From Yuukianura sp. NJ FZ-2021 (lineage: Eukaryota): a stretch of DNA of 64,000 nt. Under the pieces are notes generated by a model. It saw nothing but the letters and a program-made list of their open reading frames with translations, was not told where the DNA came from and searched no databases. The translations under genes were made by a program, and so were the position numbers. Each line of letters opens with the position of its first letter. Positions within the stretch are counted from its first letter, which is position 1. The stretch spans positions 3,782,001 to 3,846,000 of the forward strand of contig CM102283.1 of the NCBI GenBank assembly GCA_046563655.1. The letters run 5' to 3'. This document shows positions 12,759 to 38,929 of this stretch, in pieces.

Positions 12759-13232
12759 TGTCATGAAATGACCGTTTCAGCCAGCTACTCCAATTTCACA
12801 ACACAACATTTAAATATTCAAATCTTCTAATTAGCTTCCTTTTGTCTTTTGTAAAAATGTAAGCTTGGGCCCATAACGGACCCAAACCAGATCAAACTAG
12901 TTCGTCTCCTTTGTCTCCTTAAAATAGATTTTTATGTAAAACTGGAGTAAGACAAAGCTAGATCTTACTCCAGTGGTTTCCGGTCTGGGCCCTATAAAAG
13001 GACCCAGTGCCGTCTGTACAATCAATCATTCAACTTCTTGCCTCTGCTCCGCTTGGAACAGAGTGACCTTTACTACTCGCCAGTTTGACCTCTGCGAGGT
13101 CAAACTGCGCCTTTCACTTTCATTTTTGAAAATAAAAAGTTCATTGAACTTTAGACTCCGCAACAAGCGGACAACCAAAACTTGTAGTGTGTCTCTGTTT
13201 CTTTTAGGCCTAGAAGGCCTTATTTCACTACA
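12759..13232 (+). repeat. 5' LTR
   Basis: TGTCATG...CACTACA; contains TATAAAA near 12993 and AATAAA near 13131. Confidence 0.92.
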
Positions 13233-14967
13233 ATTGGTGGACGAGTTTTTCGAACCAATGACCTCTGGGTCAACACTTGTGTTGATCCAGAGAAGAAAAT
13301 CCTCGTGGCGGTGGTCCGGTCGGTGCCTCTTCGTGAGGCAAAAGCGAACGTTGACCTGTTGACCTGAGGTGGGATGCTATAGCATCCGGTGCATTGGACA
13401 GCAAATTGCTAGTCCAGGAAAAAGCACAAATTGGAGGCGTTGATTTGCACGCCAGAAACATAAGAAATTACGTTGACCCGTTAGAGGTCACGTAAGGTCA
13501 AATAAAGAAAAAATATTTTTTACCAAAATCATTTTGACCTTAAAAAGGTCAATTCAAAAAATCATTTATTTGACCCCAATGAGGTCAAATTTCGTCAAAA
13601 TTTTGAAAAATCATATTGACCTTGATGAAGGTCAAATCAAAATAATTCTTTTTGACCCCGATGAGGTCAAATTTTCAAAATTTATGTTAAACAAAGAGGG
13701 GAGGGTATGCAATGCATTTAGCATTGCAGTGACCCCAATTGACCCCGCACAAAAAAAAATTTTTTTTTTAACAATTTTCTTTGTAAGTTTTGTGACAAAA
13801 CAGAACAAAACTCAAATTTTGAAGACAATTATGTCAACATTCTCAGGTGAAACGCAAATCACCTGAAGTTAAGCAAATTACAAAGTCAAAACATTTTTGA
13901 CTACAAATTGACAAAAACATGCAAGGGCACAATGCCCTCTGTCTTGAACATACTGTAATTTTCAGATTTATAATGAAAACATAGTCAAATTAACAAAACT
14001 AACTCCAAGAAGTTAAAATGCTTTGAAAAATTCACATTTTACTTCAAAATTATGCCGATCTTTGTCAAAAACCAATTTTTCCAACTGATTAATACAAAAC
14101 TGGTAAATTTGCCCAGTCATGCTTCATAAAAATCAAGCGAATGGGTCAAAGCCCAAAATCCATCAATGGACTCAATATGTAGGGTTCTAAAAATGGAGGG
14201 ACATGAAGTCCAAACGCTGATTCGAACTGATTTGGGTAAACAAGCCGTAAAAATCAACTAAAATTTTACAATTATTGGTAATAAATTACCTCTGAAATTT
14301 GTTTAACTTTTTATGTCGACTCCAGTTTCGCAAATACAAGTTCAAGAAAGATTTTCAGTGAGAAAATTAACCTCTGAGATTTGCTGAAACATGAGGGAGA
14401 CTTCAAAAGTTGTTCGAATTCAAGTAATACTTGCCATCGAAATGCATCTGGTTGTTAAAAACAAAAACTAAAATCATGGTCTTCTTATGCGTCACCATTG
14501 AATTTGCTCAAAAACGCAGTCGGCGAAAGCGATCGAACTGCAGAGTTAAATGGTGTGCGACATGTTTTTCATGAAAAATAAATTTGTTTTACAAAAAGTT
14601 GCTAAAGATTTAAATTTGTGTCAAAAATTCAAAATTTCTAAAAGAAGAAAAAATTCTTCAGTAAACCACAAGGTCATCGAACCTTGGAACTCTTTTGGGA
14701 CAAAAGTTGACAATGGGTGAGTACACGAAGATGTATCCGGTAAGTTGTCTTTTGACCTTTTTGCAATTTGCAAAAGGCTGTCCCTTGACCTTTGACCCCA
14801 ATACAAAATTAATTTTCCTACATTTTTCTTTTACAAATTTTTCAATTTTACTTAAATTTATTTTTATTTTTCTAGGTGAATTTGGAGCCGGCTGATGACT
14901 GGGCGACCTCTGTGTGACCTCCGACCTCAACGAACTCAGGAGAGTTCTTGCGCTAAGGAGGGAGGAA

Positions 14968-15441
14968 TGTCATGAAATGACCGTTTCAGCCAGCTACTCC
15001 AATTTCACAACACAACATTTAAATATTCAAATCTTCTAATTAGCTTCCTTTTGTCTTTTGTAAAAATGTAAGTTTGGGCCCATAACGGACCCAAACCAGA
15101 TCAAACTAGTTCGTCTCCTTTGTCTCCTTAAAATAGATTTTTATGTAAAACTGGAGTAAGACAAAGCTAGATCTTACTCCAGTGGTTTCCGGTCTGGGCC
15201 CTATAAAAGGACCCAGTGCCGTCTGTACAATCAATCATTCAACTTCTTGCCTCTGCTCCGCTTGGAACAGAGTGACCTTTACTACTCGCCAGTTTGACCT
15301 CTGCGAGGTCAAACTGCGCCTTTCACTTTCATTTTTGAAAATAAAAAGTTCATTGAACTTTAGACTCCGCAACAAGCGGACAACCAAAACTTGTAGTGTT
15401 GTTTCTGTTTCTTTTAGGCCTGAAAGGCCTATTTCACTACA
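14968..15441 (+). repeat. 3' LTR
   Basis: Copy of the 5' LTR with only a few substitutions/indels, mostly in the last ~50 bp. Confidence 0.92.
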
Positions 15442-17020
15442 CCTTGTTCAAACAAAAACAGAATTCCCTGGAACTCGGATATTTTGACACTTTGAACTTC
15501 TCTCTGCAAGTTTTCTGACTAGGAGCAGATTGTGTCTGTTGAAAGTCAAAGAGAATTTAAGTTTTAGCTGTAGAATTGAGAAGAGCATTTCCCTTTTGTG
15601 GATTGAATGTTTGAATTTAAGTGAAAGTGAAAATGAAATTAGAAGTGACAGGAGAAATTAGATTTTAGGCAACATGTGCTTCTAGTCACTCCAAATTGGA
15701 AATAACAATGGAAATCCCACTCATTCATACCAACTTTGTTCACAATTTTTCAAAACAGAACAATACAAAAATTCTGCTGCTTCTGAAAGTTCATCCTCCA
15801 CTTTTCAAAATTTTCCAAAAATATAAAAGAGGTTGAGAAAGTAGTAGGGATTGTGGAAGATGAGAAAAGTCTTGAATAGAAGAGACTCAATTCCTTTCAA
15901 AATCACATTCAAAATTACTTTCTCCTCAAGAAGCTTTTTAAGTCCAAGGGTACCACATGGCATGCCCAGTGCAATGCCCGGGTATTTTAGGGTTATTTCT
16001 GGATACTACCCATCACTAAAATTCAAAAAGTCTAAATTTTTTTTAAAATAAAAAACATTTTGTAAGAACTTTTTCTTTTTTAAAATAAAGAAAAGTTTTG
16101 TAATAAAAAGTGAGTTATTTTAAAAAACCCCAACCGATTTTTTTTGAGTTTTTGAATTCGCCAAGTCCTCAACGGAGGGAGTGGTGAACCCTGAATAAAA
16201 ATGTAATTTTTTTCGTTTCTGCTTCTATTTTAAAAAGTAGTTTGATAAGGTGTATTGAATATGTTGAAAAAGAGAAAGTTGGTTTCTGTATGGATGGAAA
16301 TGGGAGAAAGTTGGAAAAAGTTTAAACCTCGTTAGATTACAAGAGGATCTGGATGTAGTCGATTGAATTTTTATAAAGGGATTTACCACTCATACTCTCT
16401 CTCTCAATTCAATCTAAGGAAAAAGAGACAAAAGAGACAAAAATTTCTGCAAAAGAAAAAGGAGAAGAGAAAAAAGAAAGACAAAAATCTCTCCCCAGGA
16501 TAAAAAGTGTTTTATAAAAATTAAAAAAAGCTACAGGGCCTCAAACTATTAAGAATTATATTACATTATAAATTATAAAAGTATAATTTTTATAATCGTT
16601 TGTATAATTTCAGTTATAGTTTTCTTATCATAGTAGAATCTGTCTAAATCACAGTGTGTGATCTCTCTTTGGAATTGAAATAAATCCTCATCTCAACCTT
16701 AAAAAAAGTTAATGAGATCCAGTTGGAAAAATTAATACAACTTTTTACTCACTCCACTCGTCAAAAAACCAGAAAAATTTAACAAATGAAAAAAAAGTAC
16801 AGAAAGGCTGTGCTTGAGCTGTCCAAATAATTTAGTTGTTCCGACACGCCTCAAAAAACTTCCTCTGCTTGAACATCTTCAAATTGAGTCTAATTAATAA
16901 TTATGATCTTCCTCAAAATAATACAACTTTGTTCCATCTTCGTTTGGTTTAAAAAGAACATAAAACAGAAAATAACATTGTTAAGTTTCGTGATATCAAA
17001 ATAATTTTGTAAAAATTAAA

Positions 17021-27269: not shown

Positions 27270-27374
27270 GTCGCTATAGCAATCTTGGTCTAAACATTTA
27301 CTTCAAGTAGACAGAATCACAGCAATAACGTCAATTTATTGGGCATTTTCAGGAACAAAGAGTACCATAGCAAC
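27270..27374. promoter_or_regulatory. Two RFX X-box-like motifs upstream of the dynein-tail gene
   Basis: GTCGCTATAGCAAT (27270-27283) and AGTACCATAGCAAC (27361-27374). Confidence 0.55.
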
Positions 27375-27506
27375 GGAACGCTCTTTTACACAATCATGTT
27401 TATTAAAATATTAATTTTGAAGAAGTTAATTATGAACTTCTTTTTTGTATCAGTTTGCCCCACTTCATTGCGAGCGAGCGAGCGGGAGCGTTGGAACAAA
27501 TTTGAA

Positions 27507-30500
27507 ATGTCGCTGCGATCCAATTTTGACGTCGCCGTTGGGCCTGGAGACGCCGTTAGCCTCCGAATTCCAGACCCATGGATGAGTCGCATTGAACCCA
27601 AAGTGTTCTCTACGCCACGATTCACTCAAATCCCTACGGCATTACAACAAGTACAGACTCAAAACCGCCAAATTTCAAAATTTCCAAAAAAAAAATCTTT
27701 CATATTTTGAAAATATTTGTTCATTTTGAGGCCAAAACGGAAGTGAATGAAGACTACCGTTTTACTCATCACCATTTCTTGGTCGATTCCGCCACTGAAT
27801 CCTTTCCGTCTACTCCATTGGATCAGACTGGACTCATTGCCGAACTTGGAGGTGACTGGAGTGAGTTTCAGGGCCGGATCGCTCAATGTTCAACTGCAGT
27901 CTTTCCGTTTAAAAAGTATCGACTGGAACGCAGTTCTGTCATCTACACTCCAGAACCGTTTAAAGCCTTTTCAGAAATTTTAGTGTCAGCAGTGGCGGCC
28001 CATTCCAAAAGATTCCTCTTCACAACTGATCTGCCCAAACTGGTTCCCGTTCCACTCCAAGTTTACGTTTCCAAACAAAAGGAACATATTAAACCGGTAA
28101 TTTTCAAAATTTCAAAAAAAAAAAAATTGAATTAAAAAAAACATTTTTAAATTTTAAACAGACGGAAGAGTTCGTGAGGGTGGAATGGCTGGATTTTGTT
28201 GTAACTACAATCAAAAACCACCTTAAAAACGAACCTCAACTGCGATACGACACTGACGAAAAGGACTGGAACGTTTTTGAAGTTTCAAAAATTTCTAAAT
28301 ACTTGACACTCATGAGATTTGTGATGGAGGTCAGTTTCTTGTTCCGAAATTCAAAATTTCTATTTCTTGAAAATTTGGAAAACTTGAATTTTGAAAATTT
28401 ACAGGACACTCTGCGTACGATGGTTCTGGAGTCGCTGGATTCGTTTTTGAACAAAATCAAGGCCCTGACAGAACCCTTTGAAAACGTTGACCAAACGTAC
28501 GAGTGGGGAAATGACCTTGTTCACACGGAATTCCCGCCACCGCAGGGTCACCATCCTCTATGGGCATTGGAGTTGACACTTTCCAGTGATGGACCAACCT
28601 ACGACCACTTCTTGTCTGACTTTTCCAAGGAATTGACAGGCCTCATGACGATCTGTGTCGACGCAACGGCAGGAATTCCTGACGTAAACACTTTCCTCAA
28701 TTCACATTTTCAAACTTCCTGCTTGTTTTTAACGTCGATTTTTAACAGATTCTGCCCCTGATTATGAAGAATTTGCTGTTTGGAGAAAAGAAAACACTGC
28801 ACTCAATTCCAAACGACGACCCGGCAGTGGTGGCTCGAATTTCGGAATTGCAGGGCCGTCTCGCTCAGGCTCTTGGGCCCGTCGAAGCTTACGCTAAAAA
28901 ATTTACGGCCTACCTGCCCATTTGGGATTTGGATTTGGAGCAGTTCATGAAGTGGGATTTATCAATTTATAACTTATAATATTATAATAATAAAAGTAAT
29001 TAAAATATATTATTATTATTATTTATTTGCAGTGAGTGGAACTCAGCTGATCATACTGCAGAAGAAGTTCGAGCTGCTGCTGACTTCCATTTGCACGAAC
29101 ACAATCAAATGGAAACTGAAATACCAAATTCAATTGACCTTGGTCCGTTTCGAATTCAAATTGAACCGCTCCGAACGGAACTCCTGCGAAGAAAAAAACT
29201 CGTCCACACTTCAATTCTCGAAAGTTTTGCCAACAAATTGCGATCCACAATTTCAGAGGTCAGTCACTTTTTTCAAAATTATCTTTCAAGTTTTTATTTA
29301 GAAATTTTTGAAAGTTACTCAAAGTTTTGTCTGAAATTGTTTAGATTTTGGAAGGATATGAGGAGATTAAAACAAAGTTGAGCACTCGTTCTGAAGATAT
29401 TGAGGAAGTGATGGAACTGAAACTTTTTTTGGCCGAAGTGCCGGCCCTGCTGACCAAAAATCAAGACACAATTCAAAATATTATGAGAGACTACGAAGTT
29501 TTCGAAGTTTTTAAATTCCCAATTTCGCGTGAGGACTTTGAAGCTCGTTGGACGGCCCTGATGGGTCTTCGGAAAATGTACAAGTTTGCAGATGAGGCTG
29601 TCCATTGGTTGGGTGGTGACTACCGGAAACTTCTGCGTATCCAAAAGTCGGATATGTCGGATCTCAATGTCGCCGTGGAGGTGGCGACATCTTCTGTTGC
29701 CACTTTGTCCACTTTTGTGGACATTTCAAACATTTCGGAAGCCAGGACACAAGTGGATGTCGCTGCAAAAGTAGTTCAGGAATTGCAACACAAAAGCGAC
29801 ATTTTCAACCGTCGCCAACTCGTTTTCGGTCTTCCGGCAGTTCAGAAGGAAACTGTGGCGGCTCTCGTTCAAACTACACACAAGTACGAGTCGTTATGGG
29901 CGACCATTGGCGGTAAAATTCAAAATTTCAAAAAAAATAAGTGAAAATGAAATAAAAAAAAAATTTTTTTTTTGTAGATTGGTTGAAGATTGAGGAGGAC
30001 GCTTTCAATTTGCCCATGGACCAACTGGACATGACTGGAGTAAATCAAATCATCACGGACGGTTTGAAAGTTGTGCGCAGAAGTAAAAAGTACTTTGGGC
30101 AACTGGGGGAACTCGGAGTGAAAGAATTGGCGCGCAAAGTGAAGCGACAAATCAAAGCCTTCCGAAAACTGGTTCCTTTGATACTCGTTTTCACACATGT
30201 CGGATTTCGAGCCCGCCATTTGGAATCCATTTCTCAAATTTGCGGTAATTTGAAACTTTTTTGAAAATTTTGAAAAAAAAAAGTGTTACTTACCTCCCAA
30301 TTTTTCTAAAATGCTTAGGTGTTGAAGTAGTGGCGACCTCAAGCAGTACTTTGAAGGCACTCGTTGATCAAGGGCTGAGCCCTTATGTCCTCGAAATTGA
30401 AAAAATTGGACAGGACTGTGAACATGAATTGGAAATTGAGTTGGAACTGAGCAAAATGGAGACAGATGCAACTGAAATCAAAGTCTCACTTCAAAAAGAT

Positions 30501-31064
30501 CCAAAAACAGGTTCCAAAAAGTTAAAAACTAAAATTTTGAATTGAATTTTGAAAAGTTGACTGTCTTTTTTTCTTTGTTGTTTAGGAATTGAAACTGTGA
30601 CGGTGCCTGAAGGAACGGATGAATTCCTGGAGTCCTGTGCCAAAAAAACTGGCGAATTCCAGGAGAGCCCTTACAAGGGTCCCTTTGCTGAGTACCTGAG
30701 AACTTGGGAGAACAAACTGCGCATGGCCACTTCAACGCTCCACAAAATCCGCACAATTGGACCGGACTGGATTCAGTTCCAGGAGGAATTGGAGGCTGGA
30801 GGTGATGGGAAAACGAGGGAAGAAATTTTTGAAAAAATGGGTCGTGTTTGGCGCCGAATCACCCGCATCATTCGAGGCACACCGCAGGTTTGAACAAAGT
30901 TTACAAAGTGCAGGGAATTGCATTTTTTTTTAAATTGATGCTTACAGGTAGTGGAGTTTGGTTCAAACAAAACGCTCGGCGCAAGCATCTCTCAATTTGA
31001 ACAACTACGAGCCTACATCCGTCCAGTTCCGGAGGGAAATAGGAAATCCGAAGACACGAATTAA
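27507..31064 (+). CDS. Axonemal dynein heavy-chain (DNAH1-like inner-arm) tail/DHC_N2 region only, with no AAA+ motor
   Basis: Motifs WNVFEVSKISKYLTLMRFVME-DTLRTMVLESL, IPNSIDLGPFRI, DIFNRRQLVFGLP, FRKLVPLILVFTHVGFRARHLESIS, EHELEIELELSKM and SPYKGPFAEYLRTWENKL. About 12 in-phase exons ending at TAA 31062-31064. Confidence 0.8.
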
Positions 31065-31261
31065 CAGAAAGTTGAACTTTTAATTTGAAATTTCCAAAAA
31101 TTTTGAAAAAAACGCTTCCATTTTGAAAGAAATTAAAATTAGAACAAAAGTTTCTTAGATGTTAGAAATGAAATTAGGGATTTGGTTGACTACGGACACC
31201 GGTAGATGGAACTACGTTGGCGGCGTCTGTCTGTTGTTTCAGTGGATTAGACTCACCCGTG

Positions 31262-31470
31262 AAATTAGGGATTTAGGGCAACAATGTAACCACAAAGTTT
31301 AGCCGCCCCCGATAGCTTTAGTTGGCTACACTTGAGTGGCAACGGATGTAGGTCCAGACTTTACTTAAACTGGCAACTTCAGTTACCACAAAATATAGCC
31401 ACTCAGTGCAGCCTCAAAGTGGTTACTTTGCGCGGTTACAATAATTCTACTTATACCTTACTCCAACTCA
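31262..31470. mobile_element. Degraded copy of the TAGCCAC/GTGGCTA MITE family, upstream of P2X
   Basis: Shares TAGCCAC...AGTGCAGCC and the CTTACTCCAAC terminus with the element at 23832-24070. Confidence 0.45.
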
Positions 31471-31607
31471 CGCCAACAGCTGGCCCCTGGCCACTATGAC
31501 ATTTTTGACCTCGACAGTTGACACTTTTGGACCTTCTGGACACTGGGCAGTGTCACCGGTGGAAGTAATTGGACTTCTCGATTAGTTAATTAATCGATTA
31601 ATTGAAG

Positions 31608-33570
31608 ATGCGGGCTGTCTACTTTCTGCGGAAGTCAGTTTCTGTCTTCTTCGAGTACGACACAGCGAGATATGTGAACATCAATAGCAAGAGGGTGGGA
31701 GTATTCAGTCGCTTCCTGCAATTGGTTGTTCTTGCCTACATCGTTGGGTAAGTAATTGATTAATTGAGGGTCATATGACGTTAATTGATCGATTAATTGA
31801 TGTAGGTATGTGTTGCTGCTGAGGAAGGGTTACCAGAATGTGGATTCAGTTGAGAGCGCAGTGGTGACGAAGGTCAAGGGAGTTGTGCTTACCAATTACA
31901 CTGCTGAAGAGCTTAACATCGTCAATGCAACGTTGTACAATCGTATCTGGGATCCAGCTGACTTTGTAGTGCCTTCAGAGGGACTGGAACGCGGTGGGTT
32001 CTTCGTCATGACCAACATTGTTATCACTCCTAATCAAAGTAGATCCATTTGTCCAGAGGTACTGTGTCATGTCACCATTAATCAAACTCTTAAAAGTTAT
32101 TCCTTGTTAGATAACAGTGTCTGATTACCCTTATTTACTTTTTGTAGGATGAGAACCTGCCCACTGCTGTTTGTTCCAGTGACAATGACTGTGAAGTTGG
32201 TCGGTCTTTCCAGGTTGGCAATGGAGTCCAGACGGGCAAGTGTGTCAATAGTTCCAGAGAAAATTCGACTCTAAAGACTTGTGAAATCCATGCCTGGTGT
32301 CCAGTGGAGCAAGACATTTTGCCATTGTAACTAAATTAATTGAATTAATTGCATAACTAATTGATTTCTGAGTAAAGTTAAAGTGTTTTTGTCTTTTTCT
32401 ATACTAGAAATGGAACCAAGGCGCTGCTACTCCCAGAGGCTGAGAATTTTACAGTATTGATTAAAAATGCAATTGCTTTTCCCTTCTTTGGAGAAGAATA
32501 CTCGCGCCGAAATGTGTTAGAAGATGCAAATGCTACGTACTTGCAGCAGTGTCGGTATGATCCTGTTGACGATCCGTTTTGTCCGGTATTTCGCTTGGCC
32601 GACATCGTTAAACAGTCGGGAGCCTCGTTTTCGTCAGTGGCGATTCGGGCAAGTTGAGATTTTAAGAATTTGTAAAAATCGGTGACATTTTTTGACAACT
32701 GCTGTTTTGAAATGCTACAGGGCGGAGTGTTTGTGATTACGATCAGATGGAGTTGTAACTTGGACTATGATTTCATGGTTCCATGTGATTTGGTCAGAAA
32801 GTGAAAAGATCAAAAGTGAAATGATCAGAAAAAAAGGTCAGAAAAGGAAGGAACGTAACCAAACCTAACCTGAGATCTTTTGAATTCTGACCTTTTCACT
32901 TCTGATCATTTCACTTCTGACCAAATATTTCTGACCATTTCACCTGCTACGGATTTCATGCAGTGGTGTAGACCGAGGTATTCGTTTACGAGAATGGATG
33001 CAACCGATGCCAAGATCGCTCCAGGCTGGAACTTTCGGTAAGTTTTTCAGCACATTTTCAAAATGTTTACCATTTTCAGAAAAAGTTTGTTTTTCAAATA
33101 ATATTGTTTTTGATTAGGCAAGCCAAGTACCACGAAGAGAATCGACGAACCTTGTCCAAGATGTTCGGCATAAAAGTTTTAATTGAAGTGGAAGGAGAAG
33201 CTGGAAAGTTCGGACTAGTTCCACTACTGCTGAATGTTGGTGCTGGATTGGGTTTGATGGGACTGGTAACTTTATAACTTATAATTTTATATTAATATAA
33301 TTTGTATAATTAAATATTTTATAACTTCAGACCACAGTCATATGTGACATAATAGTCCTGTACTGCTTGAAGTCTCGTGATATTTACAAAGAGAAGAAAT
33401 TCAAGACCGTCCAGGCTGGGGATGCGTTTTACGTGAATCCAGCGGCGGTTGAGCATGACGAGGACGACGCTGGAACAAATACTGCTGGTTACACAAATTT
33501 CGATCAACCCAGCACGCGACGCAGTCGACAACCTACGTTTCCGGTGGATGACAACACTCCAGTGACATAA
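31608..33570 (+). CDS. P2X purinoceptor (ATP-gated cation channel)
   Basis: Motifs FFEYDT, SAVVTKVKG, RIWDPADFV, FFVMTN...TPNQ..SICPE, GNGVQTGKC, TCEIHAWCPVE, AENFTVLIKN, PFCPVFRL, WSCNLD, PGWNFR and TM2 PLLLNVGAGLGLMGL...CD. Confidence 0.95.
32778..32951. mobile_element. 174-bp Mutator-like MITE inserted in a P2X coding exon
   Basis: 9-bp TSD GATTTCATG at 32769-32777 and 32952-32960. Imperfect TIRs (GTTCCATGTGATTTGGTCAGAAA versus reverse complement GTAGCAGGTGAAATGGTCAGAAA). Internal inverted TCAGAA/TTCTGA repeats. Confidence 0.88.
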
Positions 33571-34690
33571 GTTCAGCCAATCAGCGCCATGATACGAAGA
33601 TGTCGTTTCCTAATCGTTTGAGCTGCTCATACCGTCATATCCATGACGAGTTAAGTTAATCTAATTAATTTATGTAAGTAATTATTGACGTCATTCCTAT
33701 TCCCACGCACTGTGATATTTACAAGATCCGAACTATTTTTTACATGTTTCGGAAAAATGACTAATTCTGTTAGTATTTTTATAGGCGGAAAACGTTAGCA
33801 GAAGAGTGACAGACTTATAGGCTCTAAACAACGCAGTAGTGCGCAAATTAATTATTCACACAAAATCAATTAATAGACTTAGGAATTAATCTAATTAAAT
33901 TGATCTGTCCATGTTGATAAGGCATTGAACTCGATTAACCCTCTGACATGGCGCCACTAAGCAAGCCTCAAATCCGTGCAGTTTTTTTTCCATTGTTTAT
34001 ATAACATAATATTATTTATTTATTTATATTATGTTAATTCCGTAGTTCCTCCCAGCCCCCCACTCCCCTCCTGCTCTGCTCTTATCCTTGTATTAGTGGA
34101 CCCCCACTGAATGCACAATGCACTAAGTGCTGACAAGGAGACACAATTAAGTCATACACTCATCGTCTCTAAGTGTCGTCATCCTCAATTACTAATTGAC
34201 TACGCAGGAGGATCAATTTGCAGTGTATTTTGGGTATCCGTTGTACCGTTCGTACCAAGGTCATCGTCCCTCACTTCCCCATAAACTATAGTACAGTTAC
34301 TCCAATGTTGACTCCATTCAGCTCTGTGTATGTCCTCTCCAGCAGCTGATCTTGACTTGAGTGGTAGATAACAAAGCATTCAAAGTAATTAATTCACAGT
34401 TACGTCTTGATTAACCAACAATTAACTAAAGACAAGTATTACTAACTTCAACCTTAACATAAGGTAAGTCTATGATTAACAAAATAACATAAGGTAGTAC
34501 TATTATTTGTATTCCCAACTAATCATAGTATGATTAGTTGTTGATTGTTTGTATATGATTGTTTGTAGTTGTAGTTATGATTATCATACTAATCTGGATC
34601 TTATAGGCTTCGATTACTTTTACAAGGAACAGGTTTGAAGTGACTGGGAAGTTGGGCTGTCCATACGACCTTCACTAAACAATCAGGAAG

Positions 34691-38929
<4,239 letters not shown>

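Follow-up and report, generated by a model that had tools for sequence, protein, structure and literature searches.

When a short transposon lands in a coding exon, with a GT at its own first bases and a usable host AG just past its far end, has the gene been broken or has it acquired an intron? The question is raised by a P2X receptor gene in the window (the whole 64-kb stretch of DNA that we analysed), which comprises 8 exons and carries its insertion inside the fifth coding exon. The parts of the gene are:

31608 to 33570, + strand: P2X receptor gene (Pfam PF00864), in eight open reading frame (ORF) pieces.
31608-31747, 31806-32058, 32148-32326 and 32408-32648, + strand: first P2X exons, their borders taken from the sequence.
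32721-32777, then the insertion, then 32961-33037; 33118-33265; 33331-33570, + strand: the rest of the P2X exons.

The P2X_receptor profile (PF00864) is covered colinearly, from position 1 to position 360 of its 361, by the eight + strand ORF pieces, and at profile position 254 the piece left of the element (234-254) gives way to the one on its right (254-282). P2X chains in the PDB match exon 4 at E 4e-18, and the best P2X relatives among the proteins that we fetched are P0159 and P0021, at about 50% identity over about 400 residues, P0021 being a protein named from the springtail Orchesella dallaii. No protein of the same species matched exon 4 (among longer proteins) or the right-junction ORF in the libraries searched. 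The earlier note on this DNA had proposed that taking out the element and one copy of its flanking repeat would restore the exon, and this proved to be so: the coding sequence that results is 1335 nt long and encodes 444 amino acids in an open frame that reads DFMQWC across the site, its sole stop being the terminal one. Besides the insertion the gene shows no defect. Its ordinary introns (n=6) are 58-89 nt long, with the donors, from 5' to 3', GTAAGT, GTACTG, GTAACT, GCAAGT, GTAAGT and GTAACT; GCAAGT belongs to a GC-AG intron (cgg/GCAAGT, 32649-32720; here and below a slash marks a splice border). Strings rich in TAATTGA and TTAATTAA, for example TTAATTGATCGATTAATTGA, recur around the gene at 31580-31606 (5' of the start codon), 31750-31805 and 32330-32370 (introns 1 and 3) and 33650-33690 (3' of the stop codon).

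What interrupts the fifth coding exon, in a conserved segment of the receptor, is a transposon insertion, with the following features:

32769 to 32777, no strand assigned: left target-site duplication GATTTCATG (repeat family D7, 100% identity), encoding D-F-M.
32952 to 32960, no strand assigned: right target-site duplication GATTTCATG (repeat family D7).
32778 to 32951, + strand: 174-bp foldback MITE with no coding capacity, recognised by its inverted and tandem repeats, hairpin fold and contig depth.
32802 to 32804, + strand: in-frame TGA that is met if the element stays in the mRNA (ORF 32676 to 32804).

The two copies of GATTTCATG form a perfect 9-nt direct repeat, 183 nt apart from start to start, and by chance a perfect 9-mer would flank a hairpin this exactly with a probability of about 4^-9 per placement. 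The element between them has long, imperfect inverted arms (I1, 32 nt at 88%; I3, 21 nt at 95%; I9, 12 nt at 100%), which are made of 15-nt tandem units (32798-32827 and 32877-32922; right-arm unit TTCTGAYCWTTTCAC). As RNA, 32778-32963 is predicted to form a single long hairpin of -70 kcal/mol, as against -35.5 +/- 3.8 for shuffled sequences (z -9.2). Taken together, the perfect 9-bp repeat, the hairpin arms, the tandem units and the stable fold identify a transposon, and the claim that a 174-bp element flanked by this repeat, at 32769-32777 and 32952-32960, interrupts the P2X exon is confirmed. Its description as a terminal-inverted-repeat element holds only in part: the inverted arms are present but a clean terminal inverted repeat is not, as the termini are asymmetric. 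One end, GTTCCATGTGA, and the reverse complement of the other, CGTAGCAGGTGA, align only with a 1-nt offset, and on direct reading only 18/23 letters of the outermost ~11 nt of the two ends match with that offset. It was also correctly noted that the first two bases of the element are GT and fall on a codon boundary, that a host CAG (32961-32963) directly follows the second repeat, and that reading through meets a stop; the unspliced peptide, LDYDFMVPCDLVRK, ends in VPCDLVRK before the TGA at 32802-32804. Three CTGAC motifs lie within the element, at 32887, 32917 and 32931.

Is this a lone insertion or one of a family? Five public runs are listed as matching the locus, all of them DNA and none RNA, and we compared the contigs of four of them over 31000-34500: X1-X3, which are one sample, and X5, which comes from another study and bears another organism label. 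In all four of the four runs contig depth over the element was two to three orders of magnitude above that of the flanks. Summed depths in the two element bins (32755-32988) were 9872 and 12337 in X1, against 24.8 in the left flank bin; 38275 and 67266 against 279 in X2; 28654 and 35534 against 386.5 in X3; and 1893 and 1323 against 2.5 in X5, contig depth being no copy number and taken by us only to mean 'hundreds-fold'. The positions at which loose contig ends accumulate are 32777 (for some, 32776) and 32951/32952, and the consensus of the flanks beyond them is heterogeneous and A/T-rich, with an agreement of just 0.47-0.63, as with an ordinary MITE, which points to many copies of the element at different places. 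One 257-nt contig of X2 contains a complete copy, from 32777 to 32951 with 10 differences, whose flanks to left and right are unmatched, and deletion derivatives, with a 111-nt skip, are also present among the contigs. The depth excess, the shared borders and the unrelated flanks thus indicate a young, abundant MITE family. The copy in the P2X gene equals the commonest sequence of that family, since a 141-nt contig of X5, at a depth of 518.6, is identical to 32795-32934, with 0 other letters and 1 gap (an extra A in an A-run). This near-identity, along with the perfect duplication, bears out the proposal that the insertion is recent. Head-to-tail copies lying nearly back to back were also seen, 9 letters apart in X2 and 3 letters apart in X5.

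Within the 64-kb window itself there is no second copy of the element beyond self and intra-element matches, and a window-wide inverted-repeat scan returned 9 pairs, all unrelated to it. A 27-nt core of the element and a degenerate two-unit motif gave 0 matches in metagenome contigs, and the two-unit motif gave 0 matches in genome contigs. Among the contigs listed we found no joint that skips the 183 bases, as an empty site would. The sample of X1-X3 has at least 2 haplotypes at the P2X locus, and two contigs belonging to a divergent haplotype break off where the element begins or ends: one in X1 (record 7) has 5 unaligned letters past 32777, and one in X3 (record 21) has 16 unaligned letters before 32952. 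Contigs ending in this way would fit an empty-site allele, and we take them as only a hint of one.

As to its class, the element is small and non-coding, with inverted repeats, a flanking duplication and many near-identical copies, as MITEs are, and it combines a 9-bp duplication with composite inverted repeats of short tandem units, as Mutator/Foldback elements do. It is a young, high-copy foldback MITE of Mutator/Foldback-like build, in which the superfamily is judged from architecture, no transposase partner having been seen. Other copies span from 32777 (some from 32776) to 32951/32952, so that the border of the element is known to within 1 nt; the G at 32777 is possibly the element's own, making the target duplication 8 or 9 bp, and because of this an 8-bp duplication (hAT- or P-like) may also be compatible with the element. 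The Tm1 elements of root-knot nematodes are a Mutator/Foldback family with composite inverted repeats and MITE-like members, and their description (PMC3169594) offers several likenesses: target duplications of 8-10 bp (9 bp here), inverted arms of tandem units of 13-15 bp (15 nt here), short asymmetric terminal motifs outside the inverted repeat, and small non-coding derivatives with hairpin folding. The likeness to Tm1 is one of architecture only, and we claim no similarity of sequence (PMC3169594).

Before the effect of the insertion can be weighed, it has to be asked what the exon encoded without it. The site lies between two cysteines of the motif W.C..D...C.P.Y, which has 90 matches among the 150 relatives listed. 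The spacing between these cysteines is 8 residues in 76/90 matches, with 9 residues in 9, 10 in 4 and 7 in 1, and it is also 8 in the tick P2X structure 5f1c. The nearest relatives, by contrast with this norm, have a 9-residue spacing, with DFLTHC, DFTKHC, DFMKHC or NFMKSC aligned to the restored DFMQWC. Their spacing indicates that the uninterrupted exon, with its Gln, is the ancestral state, and the conclusion that this exon read DFMQWC is supported by the sequence comparison. We had also considered the idea that a product lacking the Gln would restore a canonical loop length, and rejected it: the nearest relatives have nine residues, like the uninterrupted exon. A putative Gln-less product would therefore lose a residue that the closest relatives keep, its loop length of 8 nevertheless being the norm of the family.

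What, then, happens to the transcript? The most likely reading of the sequence, which we hold with moderate confidence, is that the insertion is a recent disruptive or leaky allele, possibly a polymorphic one. The young, high-copy, non-autonomous foldback MITE has only just entered an otherwise intact P2X gene, in its fifth coding exon, duplicating 9 bp (possibly 8) of its target; retained in the mRNA, it would bring in a stop eight codons into the element, leaving a disrupted or leaky P2X allele. To judge from the signals at the locus, such an allele is more likely than an established, efficiently spliced intron. Those signals are:

32778 to 32963, + strand: hypothetical intron, atg/GTTCCA ... 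TTCATGCAG/tgg, 186 nt, with a product minus one Gln; putative.
32931 to 32935, + strand: CTGAC branch-like motif, 29 nt 5' of the candidate acceptor, with five of its five bases paired in the minimum-energy fold.
32793 to 32798, + strand: competing cryptic donor ttg/GTCAGA inside the element, in frame with the acceptor at 32963; score +0.5.
32755 to 32760, + strand: competing cryptic donor gtt/GTAACT in the exon, upstream of the element; score +2.3; used with the acceptor at 32963 it would remove 209 nt and shift the frame.

The candidate donor was scored with a small weight matrix built from 16 donors that homology supports in the P2X and NEDD4 genes (the latter gene is described below). At position +3, 15 of these have A and the remaining one has C, none having T, and the donor atg/GTTCCA shares with this local consensus only the G/GT. 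It scores -2.2 bits, a value equalled or exceeded by 26% of the 3577 GT sites on the + strand of the window. Both of the competing donors are stronger, the one at 32755 causing a frameshift and the one at 32793 adding five residues that include a Cys. Each of the three CTGAC motifs lies base-paired within the stem of the minimum-energy hairpin (-70 kcal/mol), so that the branch motifs would be sequestered. The proposed in-frame GT...CAG pair with CTGAC motifs may work on paper, with a weak donor and with its motifs tied up in the stem.

Against the disruptive reading it must be said that real donors here can be weak too. Under the same small model, left out one at a time, the 16 real donors score between -3.7 and 6.6, with 3/16 at or below -1.2, which indicates that weak donors are used in this genome; a neighbouring dynein-like ORF chain also seems to need a GTTCCA donor, although with the better exon side cag/. 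The acceptor TTCATGCAG/t, the CTGAC 29 nt upstream of it and the 186-nt length would all be plausible for splicing. The possibility thus arises that the insertion is a nascent intron, in which the element supplies GT and CTGAC and the host supplies CAG, and in which the splicing of 32778-32963 would give a working receptor minus one Gln. On the sequence as it stands we consider this possible but unlikely. The predicted mRNA would join GATTTCATG to TGGTGTAGA, and of the 22 in-frame, stop-free GT/GC-AG pairs listed, none would disturb the product less than the GT at 32778 with the CAG at 32961-32963. The acceptor lies 12 nt past the end of the element, the stretch from the CTGAC at 32931 to the AG is 64% pyrimidine, and both acceptor and branch distance are ordinary. 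The product would have the family-typical 8-residue spacing and, as this is the spacing of 76/90 motif matches, it could work. Real donors in the window include GTCGGT, GCACGT and apparently GTTCCA. That the P2X gene is otherwise intact also agrees with splicing; the insertion is so young, however, that this says little either way.

How much weight should be given to so good a fit? When we simulated sense insertions of the element at the 1296 positions of the restored coding sequence, 29% gave an in-frame, stop-free GT...AG with the AG no more than 15 nt past the element, and 19% allowed removal within one codon of exact (n=1296), so that a fit of this kind is expected by chance in a good part of such insertions. 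The closest relatives, moreover, keep the residue that would go. Exact restoration by a GT-AG intron is impossible at this site, because the 9-bp duplication supplies no splice site.

Comparison with introners, MITE-like transposons that create spliceosomal introns, bears on the same possibility. Two accounts (PMC9860276, PMC11282704) describe some introners that bring a single splice site of their own, the second being borrowed from the duplication or the host, as well as families that alter the mRNA by one codon or more; the addition or deletion of neighbouring codons (PMC9860276) would accord with the loss of a single Gln. The P2X insertion resembles these introners in being a short element with inverted repeats and a target duplication in a coding exon, with GT at its first bases and a usable host AG just downstream (PMC9860276, PMC11282704), and it differs from them in that one genic copy is known here, its splicing is putative and its donor is far from the local consensus. 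A 2022 survey places introners in only two animal groups, with copepods named (PMC9860276). Our full-text literature search returned no relevant report of introners in springtails (Collembola) among the matches listed; the only paper there with both 'introner' and 'Collembola' concerns Copia retrotransposons. The broader proposition, that an intron has been caught at birth in the gene of a neurotransmitter-gated channel, with the element spliced (as GTTCCA...CAG or via its hairpin) and its several-hundred-copy family acting as an introner in a terrestrial hexapod, where no introners are known to have been reported, would on this sequence evidence be rather improbable.

The disruptive or leaky allele that we favour has parallels in plants. 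Maize Ds and dSpm exon alleles are cases in which non-autonomous DNA transposons are partly removed from transcripts via cryptic splice sites. As here, the insertion is in an exon, and splicing at cryptic GT and AG sites, within the element or close to it, can result in leaky alleles with in-frame products that differ only slightly; the maize cases are backed by transcripts, the P2X case by DNA.

Removal by some other route is less probable again, and we regard it as doubtful. Splicing from the donor at 32793 to the acceptor at 32963 would add VPCDL and drop Q, giving ...DFMVPCDLWC..., and a hairpin-guided, non-canonical excision could restore DFMQWC exactly. The donor ttg/GTCAGA outscores atg/GTTCCA and is in frame, and the fold places the ends of the element within a few nucleotides of each other. 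Hairpin-forming, MITE-derived introns with non-canonical ends are known from Fritillaria borealis and from euglenids, where inverted repeats likewise join the ends and duplication-like repeats are found at the junctions (PMC11282704). Those lineages have altered or additional splicing machinery (PMC11282704), in contrast to the 16 introns that we checked here, all with GT or GC donors and AG acceptors. The product of the 32793 donor would, in addition, place an extra Cys in a disulphide-bonded loop. We know of no non-canonical, hairpin-guided splicing of MITEs in arthropods.

It is highly improbable that an assembler simply misplaced a repeat copy in the exon. In favour of this, among the contigs listed from the four runs none bridges either junction with at least 31 letters on each side; but a repeat of high copy number is just where contigs from a short-read graph should end, and a misjoin would not yield a perfect 9-bp in-frame exon duplication at the borders of the element.

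If the element is spliced, the locus would present a dated, single-event gain of an intron that stems from a DNA transposon, and in an animal that belongs to neither of the two introner groups of the 2022 survey (PMC9860276), with the ancestral exon and the donor family both in hand. As it stands, the insertion is an ordinary, though neat, case in which a coding exon has been struck by a MITE family that is active. It can serve to mark recent activity of transposons, and it is a candidate natural loss-of-function or hypomorphic allele of P2X in a lineage that still keeps P2X receptors.

Two neighbouring loci supplied the splice sites with which the candidate donor has been compared:

30511 to 30585, + strand: putative intron of the dynein-like chain, 75 nt, donor cag/GTTCCA; the only in-frame pair with a pyrimidine-rich acceptor.
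34831 to 38926, + strand: NEDD4-type E3 ligase gene with C2, WW and HECT parts, the next gene after P2X.

The earlier note had held that a dynein gene needs the same GTTCCA donor at 30511. By frame this is so, with an acceptor at 30585, but the host chain is a DHC_N2 fragment: the dynein-like ORF chain (about 27300-30890, + strand) matches, in its last three pieces, only positions 20-273 of the 403 of DHC_N2, and it stops at about 30890, some 700 bp before the start of the P2X gene; no motor domain follows it. The chain is perhaps a pseudogene, or else a dynein gene that has been truncated, and its GTTCCA donor, coming from such a fragment, consequently lends only weak support to the donor in P2X.

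Over 86 residues one HECT exon of the NEDD4 gene has 91% identity to a protein of the springtail Allacma fusca, against 75-86% for the other named arthropod rows listed, mostly insects, and 87-92% for some metagenome rows. This one exon, taken with the P2X relatives, suggests that the host is a hexapod, probably a springtail. Ten junctions of the gene were placed by alignment to the Allacma fusca protein, and their donors include aag/GTCGGT at 34914, and aca/GCACGT in a GC-AG intron (36901-36976). GC-AG introns thus occur twice among the 16 introns checked, once in P2X and once in NEDD4.

Elsewhere in the window, 12940-13359 and 15149-15484 contain a repeat of a few hundred bases in two copies about 2.2 kb apart, in which two + strand ORFs share their first 40 residues and two - strand ORFs share their last 25; this is probably another mobile element.
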